A DNA stretch of 64,000 nt from Candidatus Woesebacteria bacterium (GCA_016432525.1 CP066693.1:352815-416814); one strand, 5' to 3'; positions 491 to 40,306 are shown, counted from the stretch's first letter. Notes: a model not told the origin generated them from the letters alone. Numbers and translations: made by a program.

Positions 491-2875
491 CTACACCCAA
501 GGAAGTCCACGAACATACAACTGTTCGTAGTTGACCCTAGGCCGACGTCCAGTGCGGATAGCGTTAAGCATTTCCTCGCTGTCCCTTTTTGTTCCAATGT
601 AGAAACAAGGATCGATCTCCAACATCGGGGGTTTTCCTTGTCCCTGTTTCAGAAACTCTACAATTGCACGCCAAAAACCAATGAGCGGTGCTTGAAAACC
701 AGTTTGATAGAACTCAAACCGAACTGGTTTATTGAGACGATAGATGTCGCCAAGTTTCCGCCGAGTGATCTGATAACAAAGCTCGTCCACTTCAGCGCTT
801 GTCATTCCAGGCTGGGACACTTCAATGTTTCTGAACCAATACTGGTGAACCATTGAATCCATTTCTGGATGGCGCATCGAGATCATTCCCATCCGAATTG
901 GAGGTTGGCTTCTAAGCTGCTGCATATCAATGTCATTTCTTGGCTTCAGAACAAACAACTGAAATGGTCGTGCCTGTGATCCGTCTGTATAGACAATGTT
1001 TACTGCAATTTCGTGAGTTACATCCTTGGGTGGGCGTTCATAGACCATCTGACGAAGAGCCTTTGTGGCAATCATATGTGGAACCTCACTTAAGTTCACT
1101 CCATTAGCTTGTCCACGACGGCTTGAGCTTACTGCTCGCCAGAGATGCTTCACCACAATTTCATCGAAAGGCAAATTGCCATAATCGTTAATCCAGTCTG
1201 GAACAAACTGCCCAATAAAAGCTCTGGTGAGTTGTTCAACTGGAACCACTGTTTGTCCGACTGACTGAGTTTGTTGTGCATGTTTGTTTTGCACTGCAAT
1301 TACGACCTGGCCTTGTTGTTGCGCCTGTTCTAAAAACTGCAGTTTAAGCAGATTTTCGTGTTGAGGCATCCAAAACATTGGCAACAATCTCGTACTTCTT
1401 GCTTTCTCTGGAGATTGAATCCAAAGATTCGCAAGAACCGATAAAGTAAATTGGTCCAAAACAATACTTTCGTATTGTCCGGAGGCAAGTGCCTGATGTG
1501 CCAGAAATTGTATCCTGTCACAGACTAAATGGTAACGAGCGCGAACGTTGTGTTTGTTCACACCACGCCTAAGTTCGTATTCATCGTAGACTGCTTGTTC
1601 AGTTAGTTGAGATAACAGAAGTCGCCCAATCTGCAAGTTACGAGGAACAGCCACGAGCCTAATTTCGGTTGAATTGAAATCAAGCTTTGAAATAACTGCT
1701 TTGATCTGCTCACGTTCTTCGCCACTTCCTACATCATGTCGCATGGTTTCGCATTCGCGAAGCCGTCTCATTACTTCTGTATCCAACAAAGCAACGCTTT
1801 CAGGACAAATCATGAGTGTCACACCAATTTGTAAGAGTGCTTTTCGATAGCGCTCCAATTCTTGCTCTGATATTTCCAATACATTGCGTGGAACAAGCAA
1901 GAAAAAGTGTGTCGGCTTGTCAGCATAGGCTTGTTTAAGCGATTGCAGTGCATGTGCGTCAGTTTTGATGTAATACACAAAATCCGCCCAATCGCGCGCG
2001 CGAACCATAACTACTATCCGCTCTCCAGCTTGAACCACCAAATTACGATTTACGGTCCATGGAATGGGAGTTTCTTCCCTTGTTTCATAGATTTTTGCAA
2101 AATAGCGCGGGTCAAAGCCGATTGAGATATAACGTTCTGTTTCCTCAAGATCAGTGACCTTCCCGTCTTCTCCTATTATCTCTTTGAGTTTCAGAGTGCG
2201 GTCAAGTATTCCTCCCAAGACAATGTCTCGAGTACGCAAGACCACATCCTGATAAAGCAGATATTCTTCCGGCGTGATTTTGCCCAAAAGAATGTTCTCT
2301 GGAAATTCAGCCCCAAGCAAGAGAGATTCCATCTCCTCTTTTGTGTAGGTAAGATGATGAACCATATAGCAAACCCGCTCAGGAGAGACTTTGTCAGCCA
2401 AAGATAACTCCATTGCGCGCTGCGCTGCTTCAGGACTAAATTCCGTGAGTGCCAAGTATAGAAGCCTAGCTTCTTTTGGTGTAATGACGCCTAAGTCTAT
2501 ATGCTCCTGTTTCAGAAATACTCTGTATTCCTCTGCCATAAGAACAATGGCCGCAGGAACACTACCGCCCTCGACGTTTTTGGCAAACCTAAACCCCATC
2601 GAGGAACCACTTTTATAAGCTTGAGAAAGGATGTAAATAGTAGCAAATTTCGTTCCGCTCCAACCAGAAATAGCATCTGGATCGTAAGTCAGGAACACGT
2701 CTACTTCCATCACATTGTCTTTCTCCTGAAGCCTAGCAACTACCTTGAAAAGAATAACATCCCGAATTGCATGTCTAACAGGACGCCAATCCTTATCTCG
2801 AGGTGCTTTGCCAATGGAGCTAAACTGCTTGGTGAATCTCTCCAAATGCTGATCAAACAGTGCTAAAGCATCCAT
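491..2875 (-). CDS. Large hypothetical protein (794 aa), no recognisable catalytic or NTP-binding motif; G+C-rich island gene
   Basis: Long uninterrupted ORF with an AAGGAG Shine-Dalgarno before the ATG. No Walker A, HEPN or PD-(D/E)xK signature seen by eye. Internal repeat-like segments LVPRNVLEISEQELERY and AVPRNLQIGRLLLSQL. Much higher G+C than the flanks. Confidence 0.6.
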   Translation of the reverse strand: MDALALFDQHLERFTKQFSSIGKAPRDKDWRPVRHAIRDVILFKVVARLQEKDNVMEVDVFLTYDPDAISGWSGTKFATIYILSQAYKSGSSMGFRFAKNVEGGSVPAAIVLMAEEYRVFLKQEHIDLGVITPKEARLLYLALTEFSPEAAQRAMELSLADKVSPERVCYMVHHLTYTKEEMESLLLGAEFPENILLGKITPEEYLLYQDVVLRTRDIVLGGILDRTLKLKEIIGEDGKVTDLEETERYISIGFDPRYFAKIYETREETPIPWTVNRNLVVQAGERIVVMVRARDWADFVYYIKTDAHALQSLKQAYADKPTHFFLLVPRNVLEISEQELERYRKALLQIGVTLMICPESVALLDTEVMRRLRECETMRHDVGSGEEREQIKAVISKLDFNSTEIRLVAVPRNLQIGRLLLSQLTEQAVYDEYELRRGVNKHNVRARYHLVCDRIQFLAHQALASGQYESIVLDQFTLSVLANLWIQSPEKARSTRLLPMFWMPQHENLLKLQFLEQAQQQGQVVIAVQNKHAQQTQSVGQTVVPVEQLTRAFIGQFVPDWINDYGNLPFDEIVVKHLWRAVSSSRRGQANGVNLSEVPHMIATKALRQMVYERPPKDVTHEIAVNIVYTDGSQARPFQLFVLKPRNDIDMQQLRSQPPIRMGMISMRHPEMDSMVHQYWFRNIEVSQPGMTSAEVDELCYQITRRKLGDIYRLNKPVRFEFYQTGFQAPLIGFWRAIVEFLKQGQGKPPMLEIDPCFYIGTKRDSEEMLNAIRTGRRPRVNYEQLYVRGLPWV

Positions 2876-5059: not shown

Positions 5060-8000
5060 ATGACTCGCGAATGGCAAGCGCCATGTAAGTGGCCAGGTTG
5101 TACGAATAAGATTGGCTACTCTGACTGTTCGTATCGCAATTCTCTTCAATATGGATTCTCAAGACCTGAATACTGTGAGAAACACCAAGAAGAAGAACAA
5201 AGGATGAGAAAGGGTGTAGCTACTCCGTATTTTCGTATACCTCGATTTATCGGTGAGATTCAACCTGGACCTCTGGGTCATATTAAACGCTCAGAAAAAA
5301 GGGTACACATCTCAACAGATAAAGCGAGCAAGTTTGATAAGTCTCGTTTTGGAGTAACTGAGGAAGATATCTACAGGATAGCTACTTGGTTTAAAGACCC
5401 TAATCATCGAGTACTTGTGGCTACAGGAGCAACAGGAGCAGGCAAAACAATTGCAGTACCCTATTGGTTCCTATATCCACCGCAGAAAATTGTGGATGAT
5501 TTCGGATCCGATTACTTCACACGGGATGGCCAAATTCTCCTAACGGAACCTCGAATTATCGCCTTAAAGAAAGCGATAACGTTCCTTGGGGAATTGATGG
5601 GTTCATCAATTGGAAGAGGTCAAGATCTTGGCTATTCATACAGTCAAGAGGACAAATCGGATTGGCGAAATGCAATCGATTTCACAACTGACGGAAAGTT
5701 GGTTAATTGGATCGTTGCAGGGAAAATCAGCCAATATGGATTTATCATCGTAGATGAGGCACATGAAGGTTCTGAGAACATCAAGATCATATTGCGACTA
5801 CTAAACGAGCGGATGAGTCTCTACCCTAACTTGAAAGTTGTAATCCTGAGTGCGACGATTGACACTGAAGAATTTCAGCGATATTTCGCAGGTCAAGGAG
5901 CCTCAATAATCGAGTTTGCAGGTAAGGCAAGGTACGACAGTAAAGGTAATGAAATATTACCCCCAGTTCGACACTTTACAACGCAAGACGAGAGCCTTCC
6001 TTATGAAGATCCCACAAAACTGGCTAAACCTCTAATGCAGAAAGCAAAAGAGAAAGCCCAGTGGCTGGTTGAAGAAATTGTGTCTGGAAGAAAAGAATGG
6101 GGAGATATTCTCATACTTCTTCACGGCAAAAATCCGATCAATCAGTTGGTCAAGGACCTTCAAGCGTGGGCTGGACAAGAAGAAAATCTGTCTCGCATTG
6201 TTGAGGTTTACCCTCTCTATCGTACAGAAAATGATGAGGAAGACCTCACTGCTGTGGCTGATGAAGATCCCTCCCCAGGGAAAATTCGCATAATTGTTTC
6301 GACAAATATCGCCGAGGCATCAGTAACAATTGATAGCCTTGTATATGAAATCGAAACAGGAGTTCAAATTCAGCCACAATTCAAAGCTGAAATAGGTGCC
6401 AACGAATATCCTGTGACTCTCATTAGCCGTGCTAACGCTACACAGCGTTTTGGCAGAGTGGGACGTACTAAAAACGGAGAGGTGTACACGCTCTATACAG
6501 AGCAACAGTTTAACGAGTTGTTTAGAGAGCAACCTCTCGATGTACTGGAGCGCTCAAACTTGGAAGATGTTCTTCTCAAAGTTAAAGCGGCAGGTATCTC
6601 AAATGTTCAAACGGGCTGGTTAGGTAACGCACCTAAGGAGGAAATTGATCGTTCAACTAAACAATTGGTCGACTCAAACATTCTCACTGCAGAAGGGTCA
6701 TTAACATCATATGGCGCACTAGTGCGAATATTTTCGTATCCACCAAGGCTCATTGATATGTTGATGGCTGCTGATGATTTAGGTTGCTCGGTGGAAATGG
6801 CTACGATTTTGCCGGTCATCAAGAATGACGGAACTCGTAGACTTTTGTCTTGGAGATTCAGTTGGGACGCTTATACAAAGCGAATTGCTTTCAAGCGTCA
6901 TAGCGCTCTTATGGCTGGATGCAAGGACGATATGGAGTTTATACTCAAGCTTTACAAAGCTTGGGGTGAGCTTCCTTGGCTAGACCAAAACCAGTTAAGA
7001 GAGCTTTCAAAGGAAGAACTTAACACTCTGAGGAAACAGTGGGCAGATATTCACTTTGTTAATCACAAAGTGTTGCTCGTTATCGCGAAAGACAGAGATG
7101 AAGCTCTCGAACGCCTAGGTGTTAGCACCAAAGAGGAAGGCTCGAGATCGATTAATCTGTCACAGATTAGCCGTGTACGAACTCTTTTGCGGTCAATGCT
7201 AACAGAAACAGAGGTTAGTGCAGCTTCAAATCCATATCGGTATGTTGCAGATATTGAACCACAGGCAGGAACACTTGCTACTTGCAGTCTGATTTCAGAC
7301 GAACAAAGAGCAGTAAAGTCTGATTCTTGGCTTGAAATTCCTGCTTTGGAAGAAGAGACCGATGGAACATTCTCACGTTTTTTCATCGATCAGGTATATC
7401 CAGTGGGCTATCGGTTTGCAGCTAAGTTGGAGCAGCAAGGAGATGGATTCGCGTGGATTAAAACCACAAGAAACCTTACCCGAGCTCAAGCTCTGGCTCA
7501 ACAAACTGTCACTCTCGCTGAAGAAGAACCGGAGGATTTACTTGAAGATGAGATCCTAGAGGTAGAAGAACCAGAAGAAGCTTCAGGCATATCACTGGCT
7601 GATATTCCGATTCAATACTGGAATGTTGATTGCAAACAAGCAGTTCGCACGGCAAGCTCACTCGTAGGAGAGGTCATTGTTGAAATAACAGATTTCTACT
7701 TCGAAGAAGGGCAAGTGCCAGTTGTGATAGCAGAAGTTGTTCCTCAACCGGAACCGTTTGATGTATTTGTCAAACGGCATCGTTATAGCGATGAAGTCAC
7801 AGTAGAAGTAAGAGAAATCTTGCAGTTTGAAGGAGACTACTCTGCGGCCTTAGTTGTGCGTGATATTGAAACCAATCTTGAGGTTCTTGTTGAACCACAA
7901 GATATGAGCTTTACTCGTCAAGCACAGGCTGTAACTCAGATACCAGTGGGCGCTCGCCTAATTCTTAATGTCGAAAATATCGACCTTGAGACACGTCGGG

Positions 8001-9286
8001 TTCGATTGACGAACTGGGAAAAAGTCGAAAATACAATCACCGACCGCTTTATCACTACTGAAGGGGATGATGAGACCACTATTGCGAAAGCTACAGTAGT
8101 CGATATTCACGATGACGGCAAAGTCATGTTTGCTCTTGACCTTGGTCAAGCAACACTTGATATCTGCATCATCATATCGGTATATGGGATTAAGCTTCCC
8201 AAAAACTCAAGCGAATTTAAAATTGGAGAGCAAGCAACACTGAAAGTGTACCGTCGATCAAAAGCAAGCTCGTATGCAGATCTCCCTTCTCTTCCTTCGA
8301 AAGCTGTTTCGAAAATCAGCTCTGAGGAAAGACCAAACGAACTTTCGTGGAAACGAGGAGTGCTACGGTTTACAGGAAGAATGACATACGACAGACTCTA
8401 TGAGTTTAGAACAATTGCAGACAGGGATCTTGACTTCCAAAGGGCTTTAGAGAAACTGTACTGGCATTCAAATTTTGTGTACGCTGCACAATTCGTTGAC
8501 AGTGAGTTGTTTACCCATTTGCAAACAACTCTTGCGGTCGGTACTACTATCAACAACGCTATAGTTGTTGAAATAAACAACGGCGGAGTTGTTGTCGAAT
8601 TGGGTCGAGGACTCAAAGGATTTGTGCCCAGAAGCAAAATTATGGAAGGTCGTGGAAACCTCATCGACTTTGTCACTGTCGGTTCCACTGTACAGGTAAG
8701 GGTGCTTGAACATCGCATCGAACGGGCTCAACCTTTACTTGAAATCATTGGTGGAATTGTAAATCCACTTGAACAGCTTGTTGTTGGACGTACATACAAA
8801 GGCATTGTCGAAGAAGTCAATCAAAACGGAGTCTTTGTTAACTTGTCGCCGACAATCACTGGTCGTGTGAAGCACAATGAAGTTTATCGTGGAGGTACTA
8901 AAACAGAGGATTTGTTCAAGGCTGGAGACAATGTAATCGTGAAGGTTCTTTCTGTTCATCCCAGCAGACATAGCGTTGAACTCAGCATGAAAATTCCTGA
9001 ATACGATCCATCGGCAAAACTCAAGCAAGGGGCCATCGTTGAAGGAATTGTAGCAAGCCAACAAAGCTATGGATACTTTATTACCATAGCCATGGGTATC
9101 GATGGACTATTGCGTCACGAAAACATTCCAGAAGTAAGCACTGGTTTTCTTGGATTAGGCGGAAAAGCTAAGCCCAACATTGCAGTTGGTATGAAACTAC
9201 AAGTCAAAATCATCGCGATCGGTCCAGACCGCAAAAATCCAGCCAAAACCGTCTATGGTTTGGAGTATGTTCGTCAATTGAAGTAA
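5060..9286 (+). CDS. DEAH/RHA-family (HrpA-like) RNA helicase with N-terminal zinc ribbon, acidic linker and tandem C-terminal S1 RNA-binding domains (1408 aa)
   Basis: Motifs in order: Walker A GATGAGKT, motif II IVDEAHE, motif III SAT, motif V TNIAEASVTI, motif VI QRFGRVGR. WH/HA2-like segment YGALVRIFSYPPRLIDMLMAADDLGCSVEMATILPVI. N-terminal CKWPGC...CSYRN...CEKH. Acidic stretch EEEPEDLLEDEILEVEEPEE. Two S1-like OB folds (GRTYKGIVEEVNQNGVFVNLSPTITGRVKHNEV and GAIVEGIVASQQSYGYFITIAMGIDGLLRHENI). Strong SD aaaggag before the ATG. Confidence 0.8.
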   Translation: MTREWQAPCKWPGCTNKIGYSDCSYRNSLQYGFSRPEYCEKHQEEEQRMRKGVATPYFRIPRFIGEIQPGPLGHIKRSEKRVHISTDKASKFDKSRFGVTEEDIYRIATWFKDPNHRVLVATGATGAGKTIAVPYWFLYPPQKIVDDFGSDYFTRDGQILLTEPRIIALKKAITFLGELMGSSIGRGQDLGYSYSQEDKSDWRNAIDFTTDGKLVNWIVAGKISQYGFIIVDEAHEGSENIKIILRLLNERMSLYPNLKVVILSATIDTEEFQRYFAGQGASIIEFAGKARYDSKGNEILPPVRHFTTQDESLPYEDPTKLAKPLMQKAKEKAQWLVEEIVSGRKEWGDILILLHGKNPINQLVKDLQAWAGQEENLSRIVEVYPLYRTENDEEDLTAVADEDPSPGKIRIIVSTNIAEASVTIDSLVYEIETGVQIQPQFKAEIGANEYPVTLISRANATQRFGRVGRTKNGEVYTLYTEQQFNELFREQPLDVLERSNLEDVLLKVKAAGISNVQTGWLGNAPKEEIDRSTKQLVDSNILTAEGSLTSYGALVRIFSYPPRLIDMLMAADDLGCSVEMATILPVIKNDGTRRLLSWRFSWDAYTKRIAFKRHSALMAGCKDDMEFILKLYKAWGELPWLDQNQLRELSKEELNTLRKQWADIHFVNHKVLLVIAKDRDEALERLGVSTKEEGSRSINLSQISRVRTLLRSMLTETEVSAASNPYRYVADIEPQAGTLATCSLISDEQRAVKSDSWLEIPALEEETDGTFSRFFIDQVYPVGYRFAAKLEQQGDGFAWIKTTRNLTRAQALAQQTVTLAEEEPEDLLEDEILEVEEPEEASGISLADIPIQYWNVDCKQAVRTASSLVGEVIVEITDFYFEEGQVPVVIAEVVPQPEPFDVFVKRHRYSDEVTVEVREILQFEGDYSAALVVRDIETNLEVLVEPQDMSFTRQAQAVTQIPVGARLILNVENIDLETRRVRLTNWEKVENTITDRFITTEGDDETTIAKATVVDIHDDGKVMFALDLGQATLDICIIISVYGIKLPKNSSEFKIGEQATLKVYRRSKASSYADLPSLPSKAVSKISSEERPNELSWKRGVLRFTGRMTYDRLYEFRTIADRDLDFQRALEKLYWHSNFVYAAQFVDSELFTHLQTTLAVGTTINNAIVVEINNGGVVVELGRGLKGFVPRSKIMEGRGNLIDFVTVGSTVQVRVLEHRIERAQPLLEIIGGIVNPLEQLVVGRTYKGIVEEVNQNGVFVNLSPTITGRVKHNEVYRGGTKTEDLFKAGDNVIVKVLSVHPSRHSVELSMKIPEYDPSAKLKQGAIVEGIVASQQSYGYFITIAMGIDGLLRHENIPEVSTGFLGLGGKAKPNIAVGMKLQVKIIAIGPDRKNPAKTVYGLEYVRQLK

Positions 9287-16471: not shown

Positions 16472-17722
16472 ATGAACCCAAATCATTTTGGTCCAGAGAC
16501 CAGAAAGTCTCTTACAAACTTTCCCTTCCCAAATCATAAGGTATATTTGGAACTTGTCTACGAAATTGTAAAGATCAAAAAAGCAGCTGCTCTTTCAAAC
16601 GCTAAAGTTGGACTCTTGGAAAAAGAAAAGGGCAAATCAATTGTTAAAGCCTGTAATGTCATATTAGATGGAAAATACGATCACGAGTTTATAACCAGTG
16701 CAATTCAAGGAGGAGCAGGCACATCCCTTAATATGAATGTTAACGAAGTAATAGCAAATCTTTCTCATACAAAAGCCTTAAAAGACGTAAATAAATGCCA
16801 ATCCACAAACGATGTAAATCCGTCAGCTCTTAGATTGGTTTGTTTAAATCTTTCAGATCTTTTAATCAAAAACTTAGATAAGCTGATTATAGAATTTGAA
16901 AAAAAGGCAAGAACTTATAAAAATTTCCAAAAACTTGCACGAACTCACATGCAAGATGCTATCTCTATAAATTTCGGTGATGAATTCAAATCCTATTCAT
17001 ACACTCTCAAAAAAGATAAAGAAAGGATAGCTAAATCAAGATCAAACCTTTTTGAACTCAACTTGGGAGGTACTGCAGTAGGAAATAGTATTAATGCTCC
17101 CCAAAAATACATTGAAAATATTTACAAAATTCTTAAAAAAATAACCAATTTAGAAATTTACAAATCCCAAAATTTCATGTCACTTACATCAAGTAGCTCC
17201 GATTTTTGTGAGCTTTCTTCATCCCTTAATATTCTTTTTACAGATTTATCAAAAATTGCAACGGACCTTCGATTCTTATCAAGTGGCCCAAAAGGAGGAA
17301 TTGGAGAAATCACTCTAAAAGAGCTCCAAAATGGGTCATCAATTATGCCGGGGAAAGTAAATCCTGTGATTCCTGAAAGCATTAATCAAGTAGCATATAT
17401 AATCTCGGCTAACAATGAAACAATTCATCAAGCAGCAAGGGATTCAAGTCTTGAACTCTCAATTATGTTCCCAATTATCGCAGATTCTTTAATCACCTCG
17501 CTCAAATTTTCAATTACAGCTGTTGAAATTTTCTCCAAAAAATGCATTAAAACTCTAAAAGTCAATAAAAACAAAACAACTAAAAACTTAAACGAATCTT
17601 TTGCAAGTGCAATATATCTAACAAATGAATTAGGCTACGCCAAAGTTTCAAAAATTGTTAAAAAAGCTCTAAAGCAAGATAAACCTCTTAAAAATTTTAT
17701 TCATACCTCAAGGATTGTATAG
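16472..17722 (+). CDS. Aspartate ammonia-lyase / class II fumarase family protein
   Basis: GGAGTSLNMNVNEV plus lyase signature GSSIMPGKVNP and NKCQSTND. Confidence 0.7.
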   Translation: MNPNHFGPETRKSLTNFPFPNHKVYLELVYEIVKIKKAAALSNAKVGLLEKEKGKSIVKACNVILDGKYDHEFITSAIQGGAGTSLNMNVNEVIANLSHTKALKDVNKCQSTNDVNPSALRLVCLNLSDLLIKNLDKLIIEFEKKARTYKNFQKLARTHMQDAISINFGDEFKSYSYTLKKDKERIAKSRSNLFELNLGGTAVGNSINAPQKYIENIYKILKKITNLEIYKSQNFMSLTSSSSDFCELSSSLNILFTDLSKIATDLRFLSSGPKGGIGEITLKELQNGSSIMPGKVNPVIPESINQVAYIISANNETIHQAARDSSLELSIMFPIIADSLITSLKFSITAVEIFSKKCIKTLKVNKNKTTKNLNESFASAIYLTNELGYAKVSKIVKKALKQDKPLKNFIHTSRIV

Positions 17723-18887
17723 GATCTAGTTTTGAAGCGCTAATCGCCGGCGCAACACCAAATATCACACCTACAATCATTGAAAATCCAAAAGAAAGTC
17801 CAATGGACCAAATTGGAACATATGTCGTTATAAAGTGATTAATTATTGTCGAGAAAAATATTCCAAGTATAATTCCTACAATCCCACCAATTGAAGAAAG
17901 CGCCACCGCTTCAACCAAGAATTGATTGCGAATATCATTAGGTTTAGCCCCCAGTGCCTTTCTAAGTCCAATCTCTCGCGTACGCTCAGTTACAGAGACA
18001 AGCATGATATTCATAACACCAATCCCCCCAACCAAAAGTGAAATTGCAGCAATTCCTCCAAGAGCTATAGTCAAAACTCCTGTAATCTGAGCAACAGTTG
18101 ATAAAGTCTGCTCTTGAGTCATAATACTAAAATCATCCTCAGAAAGTCTCTTTCCAAGTATTTGAACTGCCCTGACTTCGACTAATTTAACTTGTTCAGG
18201 ATTGTTAGCCGCTATATAAATCGTATTAGGATTAGTAATTCCAAATTGTCGCTGTGCGGAAGATAAAGGAATATAAACTACATTATCTTCATCTATTCCA
18301 AAAGTTGAGCCACGAGGAGCTATAACTCCAACAACTTGGTACTTAATTCCAGAAACATCAATGTTTTTTCCAATAGGGTCAGAATTAAAAAGTTTAGTTA
18401 CTACTGTTTTGCCAATAACTGCAACATGCCTTCCTCCATCGGCTTGTGATTGACTAAAAAATTGACCTTGATCAAATTTAATCGCTGTAATAAGCCTTGT
18501 ATAATTTGACTCAACTCCAGCAATTGTCACATTACGATCATTTTTGTTTCCATTTTTAACTGTTCCAACTTTTTGAATAATGGCAGAGACCTCTGCTTGT
18601 CCAAGTAGTTTAGTCTTCAAATTTGTCGAATCTGCCAAAAGTAACTTATTTGCTTGTATACCTCCAGGTCCTCTCCCACCGCCGATTTTTCCAGGTATTA
18701 CAAACATCAAGTTTGATCCCAATCCTTGAATTTGCTCTGTTATATAAATCTGAAGTCCCGAAACAACAGAAACCAAAAGAATTACAGACATAACTCCAAT
18801 TACAATTCCCAAAATTGTTAAAAAAGATCTCAAACGATTCGCAAGTATTGCAGTAAATGAAGATCTAATTGTCTCATTTATATCCAT
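17697..18887 (-). CDS. ABC transporter permease, MacB/FtsX-like
   Basis: N-terminal TM, large periplasmic domain, C-terminal FtsX-type four-helix permease. Confidence 0.7.
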   Translation of the reverse strand: MDINETIRSSFTAILANRLRSFLTILGIVIGVMSVILLVSVVSGLQIYITEQIQGLGSNLMFVIPGKIGGGRGPGGIQANKLLLADSTNLKTKLLGQAEVSAIIQKVGTVKNGNKNDRNVTIAGVESNYTRLITAIKFDQGQFFSQSQADGGRHVAVIGKTVVTKLFNSDPIGKNIDVSGIKYQVVGVIAPRGSTFGIDEDNVVYIPLSSAQRQFGITNPNTIYIAANNPEQVKLVEVRAVQILGKRLSEDDFSIMTQEQTLSTVAQITGVLTIALGGIAAISLLVGGIGVMNIMLVSVTERTREIGLRKALGAKPNDIRNQFLVEAVALSSIGGIVGIILGIFFSTIINHFITTYVPIWSIGLSFGFSMIVGVIFGVAPAISASKLDPIQSLRYE

Positions 18888-19557
18888 TTAAGGTCCTCCC
18901 ATCTTTAATCTCAACGATTTTATTTGCCTCACGGGCAATATCAGGCGAATGAGTAATTAATATTATAGTGCGCCCCCCTTTATTTAATTTTTTAAAAATT
19001 TTTATTACTTCCTCTCCTGTTTTACTATCCAAATTTCCTGTAGGCTCATCAGCCAAAATTATTTCGGGATTAGTTACCAATGCTCTTGCAATAGCCACTC
19101 TCTGTTGTTGGCCTCCGGAAAGTTGATTTGGTTTTGAATTTAACTTTTCTAAAAGACCAACTGACTCAAGTGCGCCAGTTGCCAATTCAACTCTCTTTTT
19201 GGCTTTTATTCCACTATAAATTAAAGGCAATATCGTGTTATCTAAAGCACTTGTTCTTCTAAGCAAATTAAAGCTTTGGAACACAAAGCCAATTTTTTGA
19301 TTTCGAATTTGAGCCCTCTTTTCTTCTTTGAGTCTTGAAACATCCAAGCCATCCAAAAAATATTTACCCGTTGTTGGATGATCTAAAAGCCCCAAAATAT
19401 TCATGAGAGTTGATTTTCCTGATCCTGAAGGTCCAACGATTGCCAAAAACTCACCTTTTTTGATATTCAAATTAATATCGTAAAGAGCCTGAAACGGTAC
19501 ACCATCGTCAGATTCAAAAATTTTACTAACCTTTACAAGTTCAACTGAATATTTCAT
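18874..19557 (-). CDS. ABC transporter ATP-binding protein (MacB/LolD type)
   Basis: Walker [10 protein letters not shown], signature [15 protein letters not shown], Walker [12 protein letters not shown]. Confidence 0.85.
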
Positions 19558-20600
19558 TTGCTAATAGCTTGAGGATTTATGATAACCTGCTCACCTTCGG
19601 AAAGTCCTGAAATAACCTCGACATCAGTATCAGATTTTATTCCAATTTTAATCTCTCTTTTTTCTGTTATTCCAGTGCCTTTATTTACATAAACGTGGCT
19701 ATCATCAATTAAAGCATCTTGTGGAATTATCAAAACATCCTTTTTGGAAGATGTAATAATATCAGCGTTCCCATTCAAACCATATATTTTTGCGATTCGA
19801 CTGTCGCCAACTTCTATTTTTACTATAACAGCAATTGCGCCAGTTGAGCTAGTTTGTGTTTGGGGGTCGATTTCAACAACTTTTCCTGAAAATACTGTAT
19901 CTCCGTAAGCGTTTAATGTAACGTTTGCGCTCTGTCCGATTTGAACTTGTCCGATATCACTTTCGTCAACTGTAGCATCAAAATCCTTTTGACTAAAATC
20001 CACCATCTGTGCAATTAAGTCAGTTGTTGTAATGTTTTGCCCAGGATTTAAACTTGCTTGATTTACAACTACTCCAGAAAATGGGGAATAAATCACTGCA
20101 TTCTGCATATCTCTCTCTGCAGCCAATAAACTCGCCCAGGCGTTGTCGTTTGCCACCTCAGATGCCGTTCTTGTAGCTTTTTGTGAAAATGTTTCATCAC
20201 TGCTATGATCTTTAACCTGATCATGGATATTCTCAACTGCAGCCTGAGTATTTCTTCTGTTGTTTATTGCCGTTTGAAGTGCAGAATTAAGATCAGTGTT
20301 ATCAAGTGCTGCAATTGTCTGTCCCTTTGAAACGTTATCACCTATAGACACTCCTAAATAGTTTAGTTTTCCAGCTATGGCAAAATGAAGCGAAACAGAT
20401 TTTTTTCCATTTAATATTCCAGAAGCACTAACACGAGATTCGATGTTGTTTTTAGAAACAGTAGCATATTGTAAAGGCACTTTTTTAGCCCGTCCTCTTA
20501 GAACAAAAAATAGGGCAATAAGAATAACAATTATTACAATAATTTTATTTCGTCTCCTCGTCCCCTTTAGTCTTTTAAGAAAATTTATTATTATTTCCAT
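19554..20600 (-). CDS. Efflux periplasmic adaptor (HlyD/MacA-like membrane fusion protein)
   Basis: N-terminal TM, coiled-coil region and beta-barrel/lipoyl-like segments. Overlapping-stop operon with the ABC ATPase and permease. Confidence 0.65.
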   Translation of the reverse strand: MEIIINFLKRLKGTRRRNKIIVIIVILIALFFVLRGRAKKVPLQYATVSKNNIESRVSASGILNGKKSVSLHFAIAGKLNYLGVSIGDNVSKGQTIAALDNTDLNSALQTAINNRRNTQAAVENIHDQVKDHSSDETFSQKATRTASEVANDNAWASLLAAERDMQNAVIYSPFSGVVVNQASLNPGQNITTTDLIAQMVDFSQKDFDATVDESDIGQVQIGQSANVTLNAYGDTVFSGKVVEIDPQTQTSSTGAIAVIVKIEVGDSRIAKIYGLNGNADIITSSKKDVLIIPQDALIDDSHVYVNKGTGITEKREIKIGIKSDTDVEVISGLSEGEQVIINPQAISK

Positions 20601-25445: not shown

Positions 25446-27506
25446 CTATTTACTTGCTTCAGAAGCGCCGATCATGCCCTGCAAAAGTTCAGGCATGTAC
25501 CAGATCTGCTGATCGGTCGCAACCTCGCCATTCGTGAGAAAAACTTTGCCGCTCTGATAGTTCAGAGGACCAGTGAACAGGTTGACCTTACCATTACCCA
25601 TATCATTAACAAAACCTACCAAAGTGACCTTCTGGTCAGCCGTCAGGGCCGGACCGTAGGCAAAACCCACATTGGACTCATCGGGATCATTGATATTCGA
25701 CCATTTAGGTCCGTTCCAATCCCAGTTAGAGTGCCAAACGCCAGCTCTAAACTCCGCAATAGCCTTAACATAGGCAGGTCCCCAGTTAAAGTACGGTACT
25801 CCCAGGCACGCACCAGCTCCTAGATCACAGGCTCCTTGATAGTCATACGGCACAGCGAAAATTTTCTCGCCCCTGTCGACACGCTGCTTGGTGACAACTA
25901 TCGCTTCAGGTGTGTCGATACCTGACATGACTACATCAGTGCCATTGTCAAAAAAGCCGTTAGCAACTTCAGTCGGGTTCAAGGTGACTCCTGGAATGTT
26001 GAACCAGAAGCCAATCCATTTTACTTCGAACCGAAGAGAGTTGGGATCACCCCCTCTGTACTTTTGAAAACAGTAGCGTACGCCAAGGTAAGCAGCTGAA
26101 GCCAACCGTCGTGTTTCATCGTTGACGAGAGGTCCAAGATAGCCAATTTTATTGGTCTTGGTTGCCAATGCGGCAGCGCATCCACCAACCATCTTCATAT
26201 ATTCCATGCGGCCCATGAAATTCCCGAGATTCTTAGGCACATCGCCTTTCAGGACAGCATCACCAGAAACGTTGATGAACGTGATATCTGGATATTTTTT
26301 TGCAACGACCGTTGTATCAGCCTGGAAAGCATCAGAGGTGGTGATGATCAGTTTAGCTCCTTCTGTCACCATGTCTTGGACCACCTGATCTAGGGTAGTA
26401 TTAGGTCGGTCTGCCGAATTGAGTTTATCCAAGGTGACATTCTTCACGCCAGGAATCTTGCTTTCAGCATAGAGAACTGCACGAAAATGTGCTTCGCTCC
26501 ACCCTTTGTCTTCCTGTGGCCCAACCAAAATAATCCCAACTGTGGTTGTCTTTGAGCTGTCTGAGTATTCCACCCAACGTTTCAAAGTCGCAAGAAAGAC
26601 CTTGGCTGCATTATCAGCGGCAAGTTGGAAAAACGTCCCTATCTCATTTGCTCCTGGCCCTCCGCCTGCTAGATCCGAAAGAGACCTGAAGATGAGAAAT
26701 GGAACCTGGTTAACATAGGCAACATGCGCAACAGCACTGGATTCCATATCCAAGCTATCAGCTTGCCATGTTTTCCATGCCCACTCTCTAAAAGCTGCGT
26801 TGTCAACGAATGTCTGTCCCGCAACTCCATTTCCGCCGACTTTTACAATAGGCTTACTTTGAAGGCACGTTTTCTTCTGTCCACGTTCAACACAATCAGC
26901 CAGTGTAACATCAGCAGTAGCTGCCTTTGCAACAGCAAGCATCTGTGGATCAGTCTGGAACCAGTAAATGCTCTCACTTGTATCTACAGGAACGCGACTG
27001 CTCGTTACTGAAATAGGTTGTGGAAACATGAAATTGAAATTTGGAAGAGTTGCGTCTACGCCCGAGTAATTTCCAGGCGTGTCCTCGCGGGCAAAATGCA
27101 TCTCCTGATACTGCGCCCATTGCGATGGTATAACAACATCACCGATGTTTAAATTCGGATTCACACCTCCTGCGATTCCTGAAAAGAAAATCCGTTCGAT
27201 GTTGAAAAGATCCAGAGCAACTTGCGTTGTCATCGCGGCATTCACCATAGATACACCTGAAAGGTAAGCCACAACAGGCTTCCCATACAGCGTACCTTTA
27301 GTAAACGTTCTACCGTTAACAACAACTGCACATTCTACTCGAACCTCCTTCAACCAGAGAGTAAGCTCCGATCCAAAGGCCGACTCCAGTGCAATGCGTT
27401 GCACTTTGTCGGGTTGGCAAGCTGTTTGGCCTGCTGCCTGTGACGTGGTCACAAGTCCCAACATTACTACAACAACCACAAAAAGTGAAAACCATCTACG
27501 AGCCAT
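25446..27506 (-). CDS. Secreted fusion protein: MTA/SAH-nucleosidase-like (PNP_UDP_1) domain + BMP/PnrA-family nucleoside-binding domain
   Basis: Likely start at ATG 27506 (GGAGG SD; MARRWFSLF signal peptide); the track ORF begins 12 nt upstream. N-terminal domain: FSGIAGG, GDVVIPSQ, LDMESSAVAHVAYVNQVPFLIFRSLSDLAGG (compare MtnN VEMEATAIAHV...RAISD). C-terminal domain: KKYPDITFINVSGD, KIGYLGP, GTDVVMSGIDTP, typical of BMP family ABC substrate-binding lipoproteins. About 50% G+C by eye. Confidence 0.7.
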   Translation of the reverse strand: MARRWFSLFVVVVVMLGLVTTSQAAGQTACQPDKVQRIALESAFGSELTLWLKEVRVECAVVVNGRTFTKGTLYGKPVVAYLSGVSMVNAAMTTQVALDLFNIERIFFSGIAGGVNPNLNIGDVVIPSQWAQYQEMHFAREDTPGNYSGVDATLPNFNFMFPQPISVTSSRVPVDTSESIYWFQTDPQMLAVAKAATADVTLADCVERGQKKTCLQSKPIVKVGGNGVAGQTFVDNAAFREWAWKTWQADSLDMESSAVAHVAYVNQVPFLIFRSLSDLAGGGPGANEIGTFFQLAADNAAKVFLATLKRWVEYSDSSKTTTVGIILVGPQEDKGWSEAHFRAVLYAESKIPGVKNVTLDKLNSADRPNTTLDQVVQDMVTEGAKLIITTSDAFQADTTVVAKKYPDITFINVSGDAVLKGDVPKNLGNFMGRMEYMKMVGGCAAALATKTNKIGYLGPLVNDETRRLASAAYLGVRYCFQKYRGGDPNSLRFEVKWIGFWFNIPGVTLNPTEVANGFFDNGTDVVMSGIDTPEAIVVTKQRVDRGEKIFAVPYDYQGACDLGAGACLGVPYFNWGPAYVKAIAEFRAGVWHSNWDWNGPKWSNINDPDESNVGFAYGPALTADQKVTLVGFVNDMGNGKVNLFTGPLNYQSGKVFLTNGEVATDQQIWYMPELLQGMIGASEASK

Positions 27507-27631
27507 ACAAACCTCCATACTGCCGTTTATCCAACCATTGGATATTTGCTAGACAGCAGTATTTTGGGTATAAAACCTTACGCCCAAAAGACTGCTGTCT
27601 AAAGGTACTTTATTTGTTAAAGAGCACAAAA

Positions 27632-27654
27632 AAACTCGCAGATAATGCGAGTTA
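27632..27654 (-). terminator. Rho-independent terminator after the phosphoribosyltransferase gene
   Basis: AACTCGCA-GATAA-TGCGAGTT hairpin followed by TTTTTTT on the minus strand. Confidence 0.55.
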
Positions 27655-27762
27655 AATAAATCCAATTATTTGGCAATTGATCTTTAAATTCATATATTTT
27701 TCTCTAAGATCTAAAAGAGATTATAGATGTTACCTACAGGATAAAAACTAAAAACAATTATG

Positions 27763-28311
27763 TCAACTCCTAAAAATAGGAAGCTCACCTAAATACGTCA
27801 AATTTTTGATTTCATCAAACTGTTCTCCTTGCTTTAAAGCAGCAAAATAGGTAATAACTTTTGCATCAAGTTTTTTCATCAAATACGCAATCATGCGCAT
27901 TGTAACTCCGGTCGAGATTACATCATCAATTACAACTATTTTTTTATTTTTAAGAAGCTTTGAGTCAGACCCATTAAGTACAAGTGGTTTGATATGTTTT
28001 GGAAAATGAGAAAGAGGCTCAAGTTTAACTGGCGAAATCATATAAGGTTTAATACTTTTGCGGCATATAACAAATCTTTTATGACCCAATCTTTTAGCAA
28101 CTCCATGTATTAGTGGTAACACTTTTACTTCAGGGCCAACCAGATAATCAAACTTAATTTTCTTAAGTCTTTTTGCAATTTCATCTGCAAGGCAATCGGT
28201 GAGTTCTACGTCTCCCAAAATTGAGAAACTAGCAATTCTAGTATTCTTCCCAACACGAATAAGAGGAAGCTTTCTACTTAAACCACATATTTTTAGATCA
28301 AAATATTCCAC
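27763..28311 (-). CDS. Phosphoribosyltransferase (PRTase type I) family protein
   Basis: PRPP-binding motif KKIVVIDDVISTGVTM. Probable GTG start at 28311 (KVEYFDLKI...). The track ORF's extension to 28374 runs through the tRNA-Glu gene and is not credible. Confidence 0.65.
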   Translation of the reverse strand: MEYFDLKICGLSRKLPLIRVGKNTRIASFSILGDVELTDCLADEIAKRLKKIKFDYLVGPEVKVLPLIHGVAKRLGHKRFVICRKSIKPYMISPVKLEPLSHFPKHIKPLVLNGSDSKLLKNKKIVVIDDVISTGVTMRMIAYLMKKLDAKVITYFAALKQGEQFDEIKNLTYLGELPIFRS

Positions 28312-28335: not shown

Positions 28336-28411
28336 GGCCCCATCGTCTAGTGGTCTAGGACGCCAGGTTCTCATCCTGGTAACCTGGGTTCGACTCCCAG
28401 TGGGGTCACCA
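28336..28411 (+). tRNA. tRNA-Glu (anticodon CUC), CCA encoded
   Basis: GGCCCCATCGTCTAGTGGTCTAGGACGCCAGGTTCTCATCCTGGTAACCTGGGTTCGACTCCCAGTGGGGTCACCA. 7-bp acceptor, D-loop AGTGGTCTA, anticodon loop UUCUCAU, T-loop TTCGACT. Confidence 0.8.
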
Positions 28412-30663: not shown

Positions 30664-31554
30664 TTAAGGCAAGCTTTCACAGGCAATCCCATTTCCGACA
30701 CCTTTTGCGCTGTCAAGCCGCATGGGATCATTTGTTGCGCTGAATCCACAACATTGAAAGAAGCTTTGTGCTTCTGCATGAGTTGAGAAGTCGGAGCAAT
30801 CTTTGTCGGGACCTGAACAAGAGTATTTACAGCTTCTGCCACCGTTTGTCGGAGCTGTCGGAGTCGATTGAGTAGTTTGCGATCGACATGCACTCCAAAG
30901 ACCTTTATTGGCGCTTCTAGCAGCGTTTTGGGCCTCGAGAAATTGATTTTGATACTTCACATCGGGAGGGTAAGTATAAGAATTGGCGTAGCCTTCACGA
31001 ACTAAAGAATCATTTACGAAAGTGTCTCCGACATATACATAGCGGGGCAATCGACCATACCGATCTGTCTCCGACACATCTTTTTCGAATCTTACCCCTT
31101 TGCCTTCGACCAATTGCCGATTTCGAGCTGTAGCCTCGCTTGCAAAGCATTCATTTTGAGTGAGCTCGGGAGTATCAATTCCGATATACCGCACACGCCT
31201 TCCATCGGAAAGCTCAATTGTGTCTCCGTCTATTACTCTTGAAACAGTAAAGACTTCCTGTTTGTCGGAACCTCCGACGCCGATGTTTTCTCCGACAGTT
31301 GTTGTCGGAGTTTGTGTCGGCAAAATCTCCGACTTAATGTCGGAAGTCGGAGGAGTATTATTGTCGGCAACTTTTGTCGGGAGGGTTGCTCCAAATCCAA
31401 AAAAAGATAAAACAAGCAAACCAATAAATCCAATTGTTAATTGTTTTCGGCTCAGATGTCTCTTCAATAGCCTTGAAAACAAACTTGGTTTAGCAATTCC
31501 CATAAGCAAGCCAATTGGAGAAAGCAAAAAAAGTGTTAGAAATAGGCCGTTCAT
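30664..31554 (-). CDS. Membrane-anchored thermonuclease (SNase-like) with C-terminal Excalibur Ca-binding domain
   Basis: SNase motifs VIDGDTIEL, RYIGIDTPE, RYGRLPRYVYV. C-terminal DPMRLDSAKGVGNGIACE (Excalibur DxDxDGxxCE-like). N-terminal TM helices. Start uncertain: ATG 31554 (MNGLF...), 31503, or track start 31623. Confidence 0.7.
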   Translation of the reverse strand: MNGLFLTLFLLSPIGLLMGIAKPSLFSRLLKRHLSRKQLTIGFIGLLVLSFFGFGATLPTKVADNNTPPTSDIKSEILPTQTPTTTVGENIGVGGSDKQEVFTVSRVIDGDTIELSDGRRVRYIGIDTPELTQNECFASEATARNRQLVEGKGVRFEKDVSETDRYGRLPRYVYVGDTFVNDSLVREGYANSYTYPPDVKYQNQFLEAQNAARSANKGLWSACRSQTTQSTPTAPTNGGRSCKYSCSGPDKDCSDFSTHAEAQSFFQCCGFSATNDPMRLDSAKGVGNGIACESLP

Positions 31555-31631
31555 ACTAGGCTGAATTATACCAGAAATGATGACAAGGAGTCGGAGGTAA
31601 AAGAGACAGGGAGTCACTACCATAAAAAGTA

Positions 31632-39412: not shown

Positions 39413-40306
39413 TTATAGAAGTACTGGTCCACAAAATATCTGCGGAAGCCTAAGCCTAAAGAATCCAAAGTCAAAAGTTACAAAAGTTGTTTTGCATTGG
39501 AATGTAAATCTCGGGAAAGGTGGAAAGCTTGGAAATGGAAATCCAGATGGCTTTGGTGTCTGTGTAGGGGTGGCTGTTGGGCTAGCAGAAGGTGTCGCAG
39601 TGGGAGTCGCTGTAGGCGTTGAGGTAGGAGTAGCTGTTGGTGTTGCAGTAGGAGAAGCAGAAGCTGTTGGACTAGCAGAAGGTGAAGGTGTCGAAACAAT
39701 AATTGATGAATTTCTTGGAGTAGATGTAGTCAATAATTCAAAATCTGTTGAATTATCCTCTGTATCTTGTCCATGCCCGCCTGTATCATCAATTTTTCTC
39801 TGAATACTACCACCAGCAATTGGAGAAGGAGCATCACTTGCTTCTTTATCAGTTGCTGTGCCCATCCCAACTTTATCTATCAGTGTTGTGCCTGCGTCAC
39901 TATACAAAAGTACCGAATTGTTATCGGCAATAGTTCCACTGTTGGTTGATGAATAAACTTCATCTGTTATCACAGAGCCTGTATATCCAGTTGGGTGTGT
40001 CACCAAAAAATATCCATGGGAAGCAATAGTCCCACTCATACTCGCAACTAAATTTGAAGAACTAGAAGCACTTTCGCTTTCTCTTTTAAGTCTCCACCCC
40101 GACAAATCAACAGCACTATTAGTAGGATTATAAAGCTCTACAAATTCATCGTTTGCAGTGACTCCAGCAACTTGCACTTGTGATATAACAACATGACTAG
40201 CAGCAGCGCGAACAGAAGATTCAGCCTTAAAAATGAGTGCACCAAACACAAATAATCCTAAAAGCCAGGGCAAGTTAGCTTTCTTAAACATATAGCTATA
40301 ATTCAT
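39413..40306 (-). CDS. Lamin-tail-domain (LTD) secreted protein with Pro/Thr/Ala tandem-repeat tail
   Basis: Signal peptide. LTD core DEFVELYNPTNSAVDLSGWRL. C-terminal (A/S)PT(A)TPT repeats. Confidence 0.65.
   Translation of the reverse strand: MNYSYMFKKANLPWLLGLFVFGALIFKAESSVRAAASHVVISQVQVAGVTANDEFVELYNPTNSAVDLSGWRLKRESESASSSSNLVASMSGTIASHGYFLVTHPTGYTGSVITDEVYSSTNSGTIADNNSVLLYSDAGTTLIDKVGMGTATDKEASDAPSPIAGGSIQRKIDDTGGHGQDTEDNSTDFELLTTSTPRNSSIIVSTPSPSASPTASASPTATPTATPTSTPTATPTATPSASPTATPTQTPKPSGFPFPSFPPFPRFTFQCKTTFVTFDFGFFRLRLPQIFCGPVLL
39555..39675. repeat. Short tandem repeat (6/12-nt periodicity) encoding the PT-rich linker
   Basis: Repeated ggtgtcgcagtgggagtcgctgtaggcgttgaggtaggagtagctgttggtgttgcagtagga-type units, inside the LTD gene. 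Confidence 0.55.

Follow-up and report, generated by a model that had tools for sequence, protein, structure and literature searches.

Architecture and gene neighbourhood of a predicted exported nucleosidase fused to a Bmp-family binding domain in Candidatus Woesebacteria

A 64,000-nucleotide stretch of a Candidatus Woesebacteria genome (GCA_016432525.1; CP066693.1:352815-416814), here called the window, carries a minus-strand gene whose predicted product joins a domain resembling methylthioadenosine/S-adenosylhomocysteine (MTA/SAH) nucleosidases (MTANs) to a substrate-binding domain of the Bmp family. The host belongs to the candidate phyla radiation (CPR) and has a genome of about 0.9 Mb, and is thus the kind of reduced organism that an initial annotation of the locus had envisaged. 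The seryl-tRNA synthetase encoded in the window is 100% identical to a Candidatus Woesebacteria protein, and its next matches come from Woesebacteria, Microgenomates and Patescibacteria. The gene lies in one uninterrupted open reading frame (ORF) of 690 codons at 25446..27518, with an in-frame ATG at 27518, and residue numbers follow this 690-residue frame throughout. The true product is probably the 686-residue protein starting MARRWF, because a GGAGG motif (27516-27512) lies 5 nt ahead of a second in-frame ATG at 27506; start calls differ between two Logan assemblies, with 686 residues (P0001) in one and 690 in the other. The identical ORF is present in these two independent assemblies and in the NCBI record of 916,571 bp, and therefore the fusion is not an assembly artefact. 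The GenBank entry for this gene, QQG47957.1, is a 379-residue 'BMP family ABC transporter substrate-binding protein' (25446-26585) that begins MKRWVEY at an internal TTG codon, residue L312 of the ORF, and leaves both the signal peptide and the entire nucleosidase domain unannotated. The long ORF is favoured because, biologically, a Bmp protein lacking an export signal would be meaningless. Since the public annotation covers the Bmp half only, automated surveys would miss the enzyme half.

That a single gene encodes both domains, as first proposed, is borne out by an ORF with neither stop codon nor frameshift in three assemblies. Profile hidden Markov model boundaries place Pfam PNP_UDP_1 (PF01048) at residues 46-312 (E 5.6e-39; 134.4 bits against a cut-off of 25.1) and Pfam Bmp (PF02608) at residues 325-482. 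An AlphaFold2 model built from 55 aligned sequences has a mean predicted local distance difference test score of 90.1 and a predicted template modelling score of 0.81. In this model the last helix of the enzyme (residues 297-321) is followed after three residues by the first strand of the Bmp domain (residues 325-330), and therefore the modelled junction is short and ordered.

Both domains are preceded by a putative signal peptide, as the initial annotation had stated. Judged by eye from the translation, the N-terminus (MARRWFSLFVVVVVMLGLVTTSQA, followed by AGQ) is built like a Sec signal peptide, its n, h and c regions comprising a positively charged start, 15 hydrophobic core residues and an A-x-A-type site, and signal peptidase I probably cleaves after SQA, ahead of AG. 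The AlphaFold model shows a lone N-terminal helix (residues 6-28) at low confidence. The further suggestion of a lipoprotein does not hold for this copy: no canonical lipobox (L-x-x-C) was found in the window protein, in which a Cys follows at residue 34, though several homologues are lipoproteins (P0003, P0004, P0006, P0045 and L085, with lipoboxes such as LFAGC, IIGC and LPGC, and LTAGC in L085). Two Cys pairs are invariant in family alignments, C209/C218 in the enzyme half and C564/C571 in the Bmp domain, and would fit an oxidising, extracytoplasmic location.

The N-terminal domain contains the predicted MTA/SAH-nucleosidase blocks, MESSAVAHV at residues 258-266 and RSLSD at residues 278-282. 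Residues E51, M258-E259 and S281-D282 align with Glu12, Met173-Glu174 and Ser196-Asp197 (E. coli MTAN numbering; alignment to the B. anthracis MTAN 4qez) and are invariant in nine fusion proteins, so that the acidic residues E51, E259 and D282 are all kept. We take Glu12, Glu174 and Asp197 of E. coli MTAN to be catalytic, following the established MTAN literature; titles of Protein Data Bank (PDB) entries in the Foldseek list name Glu12Gln and Asp197Asn mutants, which makes two of these residues targets of mutagenesis. The best family matches are MTA/SAH nucleosidases, futalosine hydrolases and HpnG-type proteins, all below their NCBIfam equivalog cut-offs, and the NF004079 and TIGR01704 matches fall in two stretches flanking an unaligned segment of about 80 residues. 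In the model this insertion, which carries C209/C218, forms extra strands and a helix, with low confidence at residues 156-163. Foldseek aligns the domain with MTANs at template modelling (TM) scores of 0.78-0.84, the best being the periplasmic Aeromonas MTAN 5b7q. The Asp responsible for N7 protonation of adenine in MTANs is kept, which favours adenine nucleosides as substrates, and we infer that the domain is a hydrolase of such compounds.

The C-terminal half is a Bmp-family substrate-binding domain of the ATP-binding cassette (ABC) transporter type, as proposed. The Pfam Bmp match (E 6.9e-15; 55.2 bits against a cut-off of 24.1) spans only profile positions 2-151, half of the profile. Searches of PDB sequences with phmmer aligned residues 323-675 over whole Bmp proteins, and in the AlphaFold model the entire C-half folds as a two-lobe binding protein. 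The initial annotation had further identified this half as a nucleoside-binding domain of the PnrA type, and here the comparisons point elsewhere. The best phmmer matches were 3s99 (E 2.6e-20) and AtzT (6pi5; E 4.1e-18), followed by BmpD (0.0016) and BmpA (0.036), and PnrA was not matched in this search of PDB sequences with the C-domain. Similarly, AtzT and 3S99 are the nearest solved folds in Foldseek (TM 0.90-0.92). AtzT was crystallised with endogenous guanine; its affinities are 0.11 uM for guanine and 2.5 uM for adenine, and GTP is not bound; adenine was modelled in the site of 3S99 (PMC6834077).

The base contacts described for AtzT are the Tyr45/Trp194 sandwich, Ser97, Glu165, Asn220, Asn218, Asn169 and Thr139 (PMC6834077), and these were mapped through a 21-sequence alignment. 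Tyr45 corresponds to W340, Ser97 to S395, Glu165 to E468 and Trp194 to W505, all scored as kept, and the Asn220 position is kept as D535, an Asp also found in the adenine-containing 3S99; these five residues are invariant or nearly so among 55 aligned family members. For nucleoside binders, Asp98, Asp225 and Lys242 (BmpA numbering) are described as conserved ribose contacts (PMC13325309). Nucleoside binders have Gly at the AtzT Ser97 position and Phe in the aromatic cradle. In the multiple alignment the ribose-binding Asp98 lies opposite S418 (Thr in AtzT and 3S99), the Phe/Phe cradle is kept as W340/W505, and Asp225 may match D535, with BmpA and BmpD compared over the N-lobe only. By these sequence comparisons the C-domain is a distinct subfamily on the base-binder (AtzT/3S99) side rather than a member of the PnrA branch. 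Because these five AtzT/3S99 base contacts are kept and, in the multiple alignment, a Ser stands where nucleoside binders have a ribose-binding Asp, capture of a released base, adenine, appears more likely than capture of a nucleoside.

Close relatives of the C-domain (60-74% identical) are overwhelmingly from Chloroflexota/Anaerolineae. In this large subfamily the domain occurs alone, fused to a nucleosidase, or behind another Bmp domain in tandem Bmp-Bmp proteins. The tandem proteins (P0008, P0012, P0020, P0023 and P0108; Chloroflexota metagenomic, 720-790 residues) always have the window-type domain at the C-terminus, preceded by an AtzT-like half (P0012, 47% to AtzT) or a BmpA-like half (P0008).

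Table 1. Coordinates of the features described at the fusion locus (window positions)
Feature	Position	Strand	Basis or remark
Fusion protein CDS	25446..27506	(-)	686 aa from ATG 27506; stop codon 25446-25448
Signal peptide (putative), aa 5-28: MARRWFSLFVVVVVMLGLVTTSQA	27435..27506	(-)	read by eye from translation
MTAN-like nucleosidase domain, aa 38-318	26565..27407	(-)	Pfam, NCBIfam, Foldseek
Insertion of ~80 residues, ~aa 137-222	26853..27110	(-)	unaligned to canonical 230-aa MTANs
Bmp-family binding domain, aa 323-690	25449..26552	(-)	Pfam, phmmer, Foldseek, contact-site alignment
Inverted repeat AGACAGCAGT...ACTGCTGTCT, 10-bp arms, 30-nt loop	27551..27600	(-)	between terminator and fusion ribosome-binding site
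Leader region	27626..27766	(-)	promoter/terminator scan, shared layout, covariation
Intrinsic terminator, followed by a T-run	27653-27633	(-)	
Pseudoknot partner segment	27684-27679	(-)	
Hairpin P1	27719-27716/27705-27702, loop 27715-27706	(-)	
Conserved 5' block (YAGNNNAAUA)	27730-27720	(-)	
Promoter-like site TTGACA, 17 nt, TATCCT	27766-27738	(-)	overlaps stop codon of phosphoribosyltransferase gene
Adenine-type phosphoribosyltransferase gene, 182 aa, GTG start	27763..28311	(-)	NCBIfam NF005592
tRNA-Glu(CTC)	28336-28411	(+)	ARAGORN; Rfam 60.8 bits
Large serine recombinase ORF, 563 aa	28371-30062	(-)	last 13 codons antisense to tRNA-Glu 3' half

The fusion recurs elsewhere. At least nine proteins of the same architecture, 43-62% identical over their full length, were found in a collection of 5.8 billion proteins, and a second fusion type, in which the nucleosidase is joined to an AtzT-like Bmp domain, was found among 1.84 billion cluster representatives (P0123 and P0135) and in the genome collection (L021; C-domain 50% identical to AtzT, with 46-50% for domains of the L021 type set against AtzT/3S99). 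Other arrangements of the nucleosidase are a tandem duplicate (P0137), a NUP-like domain placed before it (P0154), and a domain of about 270 residues without assigned identity placed after it (P0179 and P0204). None of the fusion clusters looked up has a name or a UniRef entry. The L021 contig (CAYPXO010000014.1) is labelled 'uncultured Pseudomonadales', and its flanks have 36% GC and carry CTP synthase, L19 and UPF0102 genes as in L001, where L19 and UPF0102 are also adjacent; the locus looks Patescibacteria-like, and its bin label may be wrong.

Scanning 185,579 species genomes with an alignment of the N-domain returned more than 559 loci at 51-57% identity, and the following counts refer to the best 80 of these. 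The nucleosidase is almost always a standalone protein of about 310-340 residues. In about 45 loci its gene lies between a Bmp binding-protein gene and genes for a tandem ABC ATPase and two BPD_transp_2 permeases. The hosts of these operons are Comamonadaceae (Variovorax, Acidovorax, Polaromonas, Pseudacidovorax, Xenophilus and others; L012-L081, for instance L022 8739-14408). Their binding protein is 33% identical to AtzT/3S99, and their nucleosidase, named MTA/SAH nucleosidase in RefSeq, has the lipobox LSGC. In L006, a relative of the window gene, the fusion gene itself heads a canonical set of ATPase and two BPD_transp_2 permease genes. Gene fusion and operon membership thus agree, which suggests that the exported nucleosidase works with Bmp-type uptake systems.

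A third link is provided by the adjacent phosphoribosyltransferase (PRTase) gene. The protein matches NF005592, 'adenine phosphoribosyltransferase' (E 2e-51; 173.9 bits, above the cut-off of 143), and bears the same name in GenBank (QQG47865.1). Its GTG start at 28311 is fixed by alignment of orthologues; the mechanically called ORF of 203 residues reaches into the 5' half of a tRNA-Glu gene. The gene had been described as immediately downstream of the fusion, which is true of window coordinates only: the two are on the same strand and the PRTase gene is transcribed first. Its composition is native, and it forms a transcription unit of its own. An orthologous PRTase gene (37-66% identical) precedes the fusion in all six loci with visible upstream sequence (L001, 59%, with one gene between; L006, 37%; L021, 42%; L088, 47%; L089/L090, 66%). 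It also lies upstream of a standalone nucleosidase in two Patescibacteria, L018 and the Woesebacteria locus L085 (66%), the latter with a 373-residue gene of no assigned function between the two. The linkage is one-directional, because none of 73 metagenomic PRTase loci has a nucleosidase downstream; an AtzT-like Bmp gene follows in one of them (L103). By this pattern the PRTase gene would be the resident, and the nucleosidase or fusion gene beside it looks like an addition made in particular lineages.

These three independent kinds of evidence, namely two fusion types, the Comamonadaceae operons and the conserved PRTase neighbour, suggest that nucleoside cleavage outside the cell is linked to Bmp-type capture. 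The coupling of extracellular hydrolysis to capture in the initial annotation is supported by these genomic links, although the captured ligand is more likely a base than a nucleoside. With moderate confidence, the protein is read as an exported bifunctional purine-salvage protein that combines a nucleosidase with base capture. After Sec export, the MTAN-like domain would act outside the cell and hydrolyse adenine nucleosides at their N-glycosidic bond, with adenosine, 5'-methylthioadenosine, S-adenosylhomocysteine and 5'-deoxyadenosine as candidate substrates. The Bmp domain, some three residues from the last helix of the enzyme, would capture the released purine base, most likely adenine, and hand it to a membrane importer, which in the relative L006 would be the canonical Bmp-type ABC system. 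The cytoplasmic PRTase, encoded directly upstream, would then turn the base into a nucleotide.

Several observations weigh against this reading. The C-domain is just 25-27% identical to AtzT and 3S99, three AtzT contacts are changed (Asn218 to G533, Asn169 to L472 and Thr139 to K442), D396 and D420 are family-specific, and a pairwise HMMER alignment puts D420, rather than S418, opposite BmpA Asp98. In the enzyme half, the scores for NF004079 (116.8 bits against a cut-off of 169) and TIGR01704 (68 against 73.8) fall short, and the substrate range is not readable from homology because the insertion replaces what we take to be the loop that helps form the 5'-alkylthio (5'-substituent) pocket in E. 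coli MTAN. A cleaved protein without a lipobox might diffuse away unless docked. The initial annotation had also suggested looking for a cognate permease and ATPase, and tblastn searches with the L006 ATPase and permeases and the L001 energy-coupling factor (ECF) parts, together with Pfam, found no BPD_transp_2 permease, matching ATPase or ECF component in the 64-kb window; the ABC genes present are unrelated (a MacB-type pump at 17697-20600 and a ZnuABC-type system at 55499-57895). Among proteins related to the C-domain, the nearest single-domain and tandem forms are orphans too. Only two relatives of the fusion have an adjacent transporter, and in L001 (9081-13070; 62% identical, the closest distinct relative) it is of the ECF type: the fusion gene is followed by a module of a putative S component, a fused A-A' ATPase and CbiQ/T. 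ECF-type transporters do not use soluble binding proteins. The L001 locus also encodes a second PNP_UDP_1 protein of 299 residues and then CTP synthase, with pyrimidine synthesis genes around.

The strongest alternative, which is nevertheless unlikely, is that the Bmp domain binds intact nucleosides, either to feed an importer or to recruit substrate as a carbohydrate-binding module does for a glycosidase. The Pfam family is indeed named for the nucleoside-binding PnrA, the D420 that pairwise alignment places opposite Asp98 is kept in 8 of 9 fusion proteins, D535 could match the ribose-contacting Asp225, and some Chloroflexota tandems (P0008) pair the window-type domain with a BmpA-like one. 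In contrast, the sequence search left PnrA unmatched and reached BmpD and BmpA over the N-lobe only, and the multiple alignment has S418 opposite Asp98. The domain has Ser, Glu and Trp where nucleoside types have Gly, Pro and Phe, with P0008_N as the sole nucleoside-type sequence read in the Glu and Trp columns. Moreover, hydrolysis would face competition from a domain that holds the substrate of the enzyme, the gene conserved next to the fusion encodes a base-using PRTase rather than a nucleoside kinase or phosphorylase, and the independent L021-type fusion carries a domain 50% identical to the guanine/adenine binder AtzT.

Somewhat less probable still is that the Bmp domain serves here as a surface-retention or base-trapping module with no role in an ABC importer, uptake proceeding through an unrelated permease. 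The orphan relatives and the ECF-type neighbour in L001 would fit such a role, as would the lack of a permease or ATPase gene both in the window and next to the fusion in L007, L021, L088 and L089. Yet the fusion in L006 leads a complete Bmp-type ABC operon, a standalone nucleosidase is found within such operons in about 45 genomes, and the negative result for a partner covers 64 kb of a genome of about 0.9 Mb. Orphan binding-protein genes served by a transporter encoded elsewhere are common, which also counts against a retention role.

It is very improbable that the protein handles MTA or SAH, by-products of S-adenosylmethionine, as a detoxifying step, in methionine or sulfur salvage or in autoinducer-2 chemistry instead of serving purine acquisition: family matches to MTA/SAH nucleosidases or futalosine hydrolases and the RefSeq name of the standalone homologues point that way, whereas MTA and SAH arise in the cytoplasm and this protein is exported, its links are to a purine-type binding domain and a PRTase rather than to methionine-salvage or LuxS genes, and the scores are under the MTAN equivalog cut-offs with the 5'-pocket region remodelled. 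Finally, the possibility of two genes, or a pseudogene and a gene, to which the GenBank start at residue 312 might point, is largely refuted and essentially excluded by the intact frame in the window and two other assemblies, the missing export signal of a 379-residue product, the confident modelling of a helix running into a strand at the junction, and at least nine homologues from different samples that align unbroken through it at 43-62% identity.

The fusion is assembled from known kinds of parts. The closest functional parallel to the proposed salvage role is found in Borrelia burgdorferi, an organism of minimal biosynthesis with exported MTAN-family enzymes (Bgp/MtnN) and Bmp-family salvage (BmpA-D). 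The exported Borrelia MTANs, which carry signal peptides, are considered a source of transportable adenine (PMC7557402), and the Bmp-family lipoproteins serve salvage uptake (PMC7093131; PMC13325309). However, enzyme and Bmp proteins are separate in Borrelia and the latter bind nucleosides, whereas here one chain contains an insertion of about 80 residues and a base-branch binding domain. The periplasmic MTAN of Aeromonas hydrophila (5B7P/5B7Q) is likewise exported and matches the fold of the N-domain best, with a Foldseek E of 8e-17 and a TM score of 0.83 on the target, but it is a standalone protein of about 250 residues without insertion or binding domain and is 22% identical. AtzT and the Brucella melitensis 'basic membrane lipoprotein' 3S99 share with the C-domain the aromatic sandwich, Ser97, Glu165 and Asn/Asp220, and differ from it in low identity, three replaced contacts and the window-type domain's own large, mostly Chloroflexota subfamily. 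The PnrA proteins of Treponema pallidum (PnrA/TmpC) and Streptococcus pneumoniae share PF02608, the two-lobe fold and the aromatic cradle, but escaped the sequence search with the C-domain and have a ribose-contacting Asp where the multiple alignment has Ser here. The uncharacterised lipoprotein nucleosidases of Variovorax, Acidovorax, Polaromonas and their relatives are exported and 52-57% identical to the N-domain, insertion and catalytic residues included; unlike the fusion, they are encoded by a separate gene that follows the binding-protein gene, the reverse of the domain order, with no PRTase nearby. The fusion itself is absent from the searchable literature, in which nothing specific was found on it or on a periplasmic nucleosidase coupled to a Bmp transporter, and no earlier description of a periplasmic nucleosidase inside a purine uptake operon seems to exist.

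The composition of the fusion gene was called foreign to its surroundings in the initial annotation, and this is confirmed: at 47.8% GC, a little under the 'about 50%' first given, and 45.2% GC at third codon positions (GC3), it is the most GC-rich of 24 window genes measured, against a window mean of 36.8% and flanking values of 35.8% (GC3 21%) for Lon and 33.3% (GC3 23%) for the PRTase gene. The same pattern was found in all eight loci compared, in which the nucleosidase or fusion gene exceeds the PRTase gene by 8-22 GC points and the rest of the locus by 7-18. The paired percentages, nucleosidase or fusion gene first, are 47.8 and 33.3 in the window, 54.6 and 46.6 in L001, 57.2 and 38.9 in L006, 53.6 and 39.9 in L021, 60.3 and 40.1 in L088, 43.4 and 31.7 in L089, 60.5 and 38.5 in L085, and 45.2 and 34.5 in L018. 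Across these loci the nucleosidase or fusion genes span GC3 values of 0.34 to 0.77, and the PRTase genes are host-like. Because of this GC excess in eight hosts, and because the closest relatives of both halves come from Chloroflexota, the data are compatible with transfers from GC-rich donors that were repeated or relatively recent and are now at differing stages of amelioration. The gene was probably acquired horizontally, with Chloroflexota the most likely source, and set beside the resident PRTase gene. A neighbour-joining tree of 94 nucleosidase domains, computed without bootstrap, is star-like and does not separate transfer or fusion events, with fusions, Chloroflexota and Patescibacteria intermixed and all 50-59% identical. 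Other long GC-rich genes (43-45%) in the window are a 794-residue gene without Pfam match (491-2875, minus strand), a 1408-residue DEAD-box helicase with S1 domains (5060-9286, plus strand) and a 921-residue gene with a weak immunoglobulin-domain match (Big_7, E 3.5e-5; 58175-60940, plus strand).

The PRTase and fusion genes are separated by 244 nt, within which a candidate leader RNA was recognised. Its elements follow in the order promoter-like site, conserved block, hairpin, A-rich stretch and terminator, and about 120 nt then separate it from the ribosome-binding site; the promoter scan found no further promoter-like sites ahead of the fusion gene. An element of about 100 nt after the orthologous PRTase gene, with or without a nucleosidase following, was found in 19 instances at 18 loci (among them the window, L018, L021, L085, L088, L089, L097, L098, L100-L107 and L109), and in about 2 Mb of collected loci an nhmmer profile of the leader had no match other than those after this PRTase gene. 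Among the 19 instances the stem of the hairpin occurs in 17 different sequences, all of which pair, and the hairpin loop can pair with a segment that usually lies 15-22 nt past the stem. Compensatory variants of this second helix include GCC/GGC in most instances, ACC/GGU in two, GCCUU/AAGGC, and UCAAGCC/GGCUUGA as against UUAAGCC/GGCUUAA; in the window the pairing is GAUCUU/AAGAUC. Compared with shuffled tails, the pseudoknot has a Fisher-combined p of 0.006, the single instances being weak owing to their short helices. No Rfam family matched the leader of the window or of five other loci at gathering or permissive thresholds. Genes recognised after the leader include those for the fusion, a standalone nucleosidase, an AtzT-like binding protein and the 373-residue protein. 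The leader looks like an undescribed H-type pseudoknot RNA, possibly acting as a riboswitch or as a PyrR-like attenuator to which a PRTase-family protein binds. The idea of a short conserved ORF within the leader was rejected, as reading frames are not conserved. Repeats similar to the inverted repeat beyond the terminator, of the form CAGC(A/G)G...CTGCTG, are present upstream of the gene in L001 and L085.

The initial annotation placed the fusion gene next to a tRNA gene. The tRNA-Glu(CTC) is real, but the PRTase gene stands between the two. The serine recombinase ORF lies on the far side of the tRNA from the fusion, and to its right are a thermonuclease, a helix-turn-helix protein and several unknown genes; this region may be an integrated element. 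A search allowing up to 3 mismatches found no second copy of the tRNA-Glu 3' end in the window as an attachment (att)-like repeat, and no convincing long direct repeats were found to the right of the tRNA. The tRNA was considered as a clue to the arrival of the fusion gene and set aside, given the position of the recombinase, the missing att repeat and a tRNA neighbourhood that is not conserved in relatives. The thermonuclease (SNase; 30664..31623, minus strand; GC 44.6%), 3 kb away, is membrane-anchored, with an N-terminal anchor and a Cys-rich tail; it could supply the salvage route with nucleic-acid breakdown products, and may belong to a mobile element. Elsewhere in the window, imperfect 12-nt-phased repeats rich in GTAGG/GCTGT occupy 39548-39684 inside an ORF at 39413-40306 (minus strand).

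A more far-reaching interpretation, which is possible but rather doubtful, comprises a catalysis-coupled capture device passing adenine straight from active site to cleft to cell, an undescribed pseudoknotted leader that works either as a riboswitch or, with a PRTase-like protein bound to it, as an attenuator, and repeated transfer from GC-rich donors into the same PRTase-side slot in different Patescibacteria. If true, the capture device would be a new organisational principle of nutrient scavenging in ultra-small bacteria, and would also imply a function for widespread operon-encoded periplasmic nucleosidases. Independently of this, gene flow and regulation in these organisms could be followed up from the GC excess in eight hosts and from the conserved leader RNA.

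The fusion also acts as a Rosetta stone, from which two predictions follow: the exported 'MTA/SAH nucleosidases' in the Bmp-type ABC operons of many soil Betaproteobacteria would feed purine bases to those transporters, and a large uncharacterised Bmp subfamily would bind bases, not nucleosides. Patescibacteria have tiny genomes and, as a statement about the group, many have been reported to lack de novo purine synthesis; their purine supply is poorly understood. The gene offers a concrete candidate route for this supply, which would proceed by extracellular cleavage, base trapping, import and phosphoribosylation.

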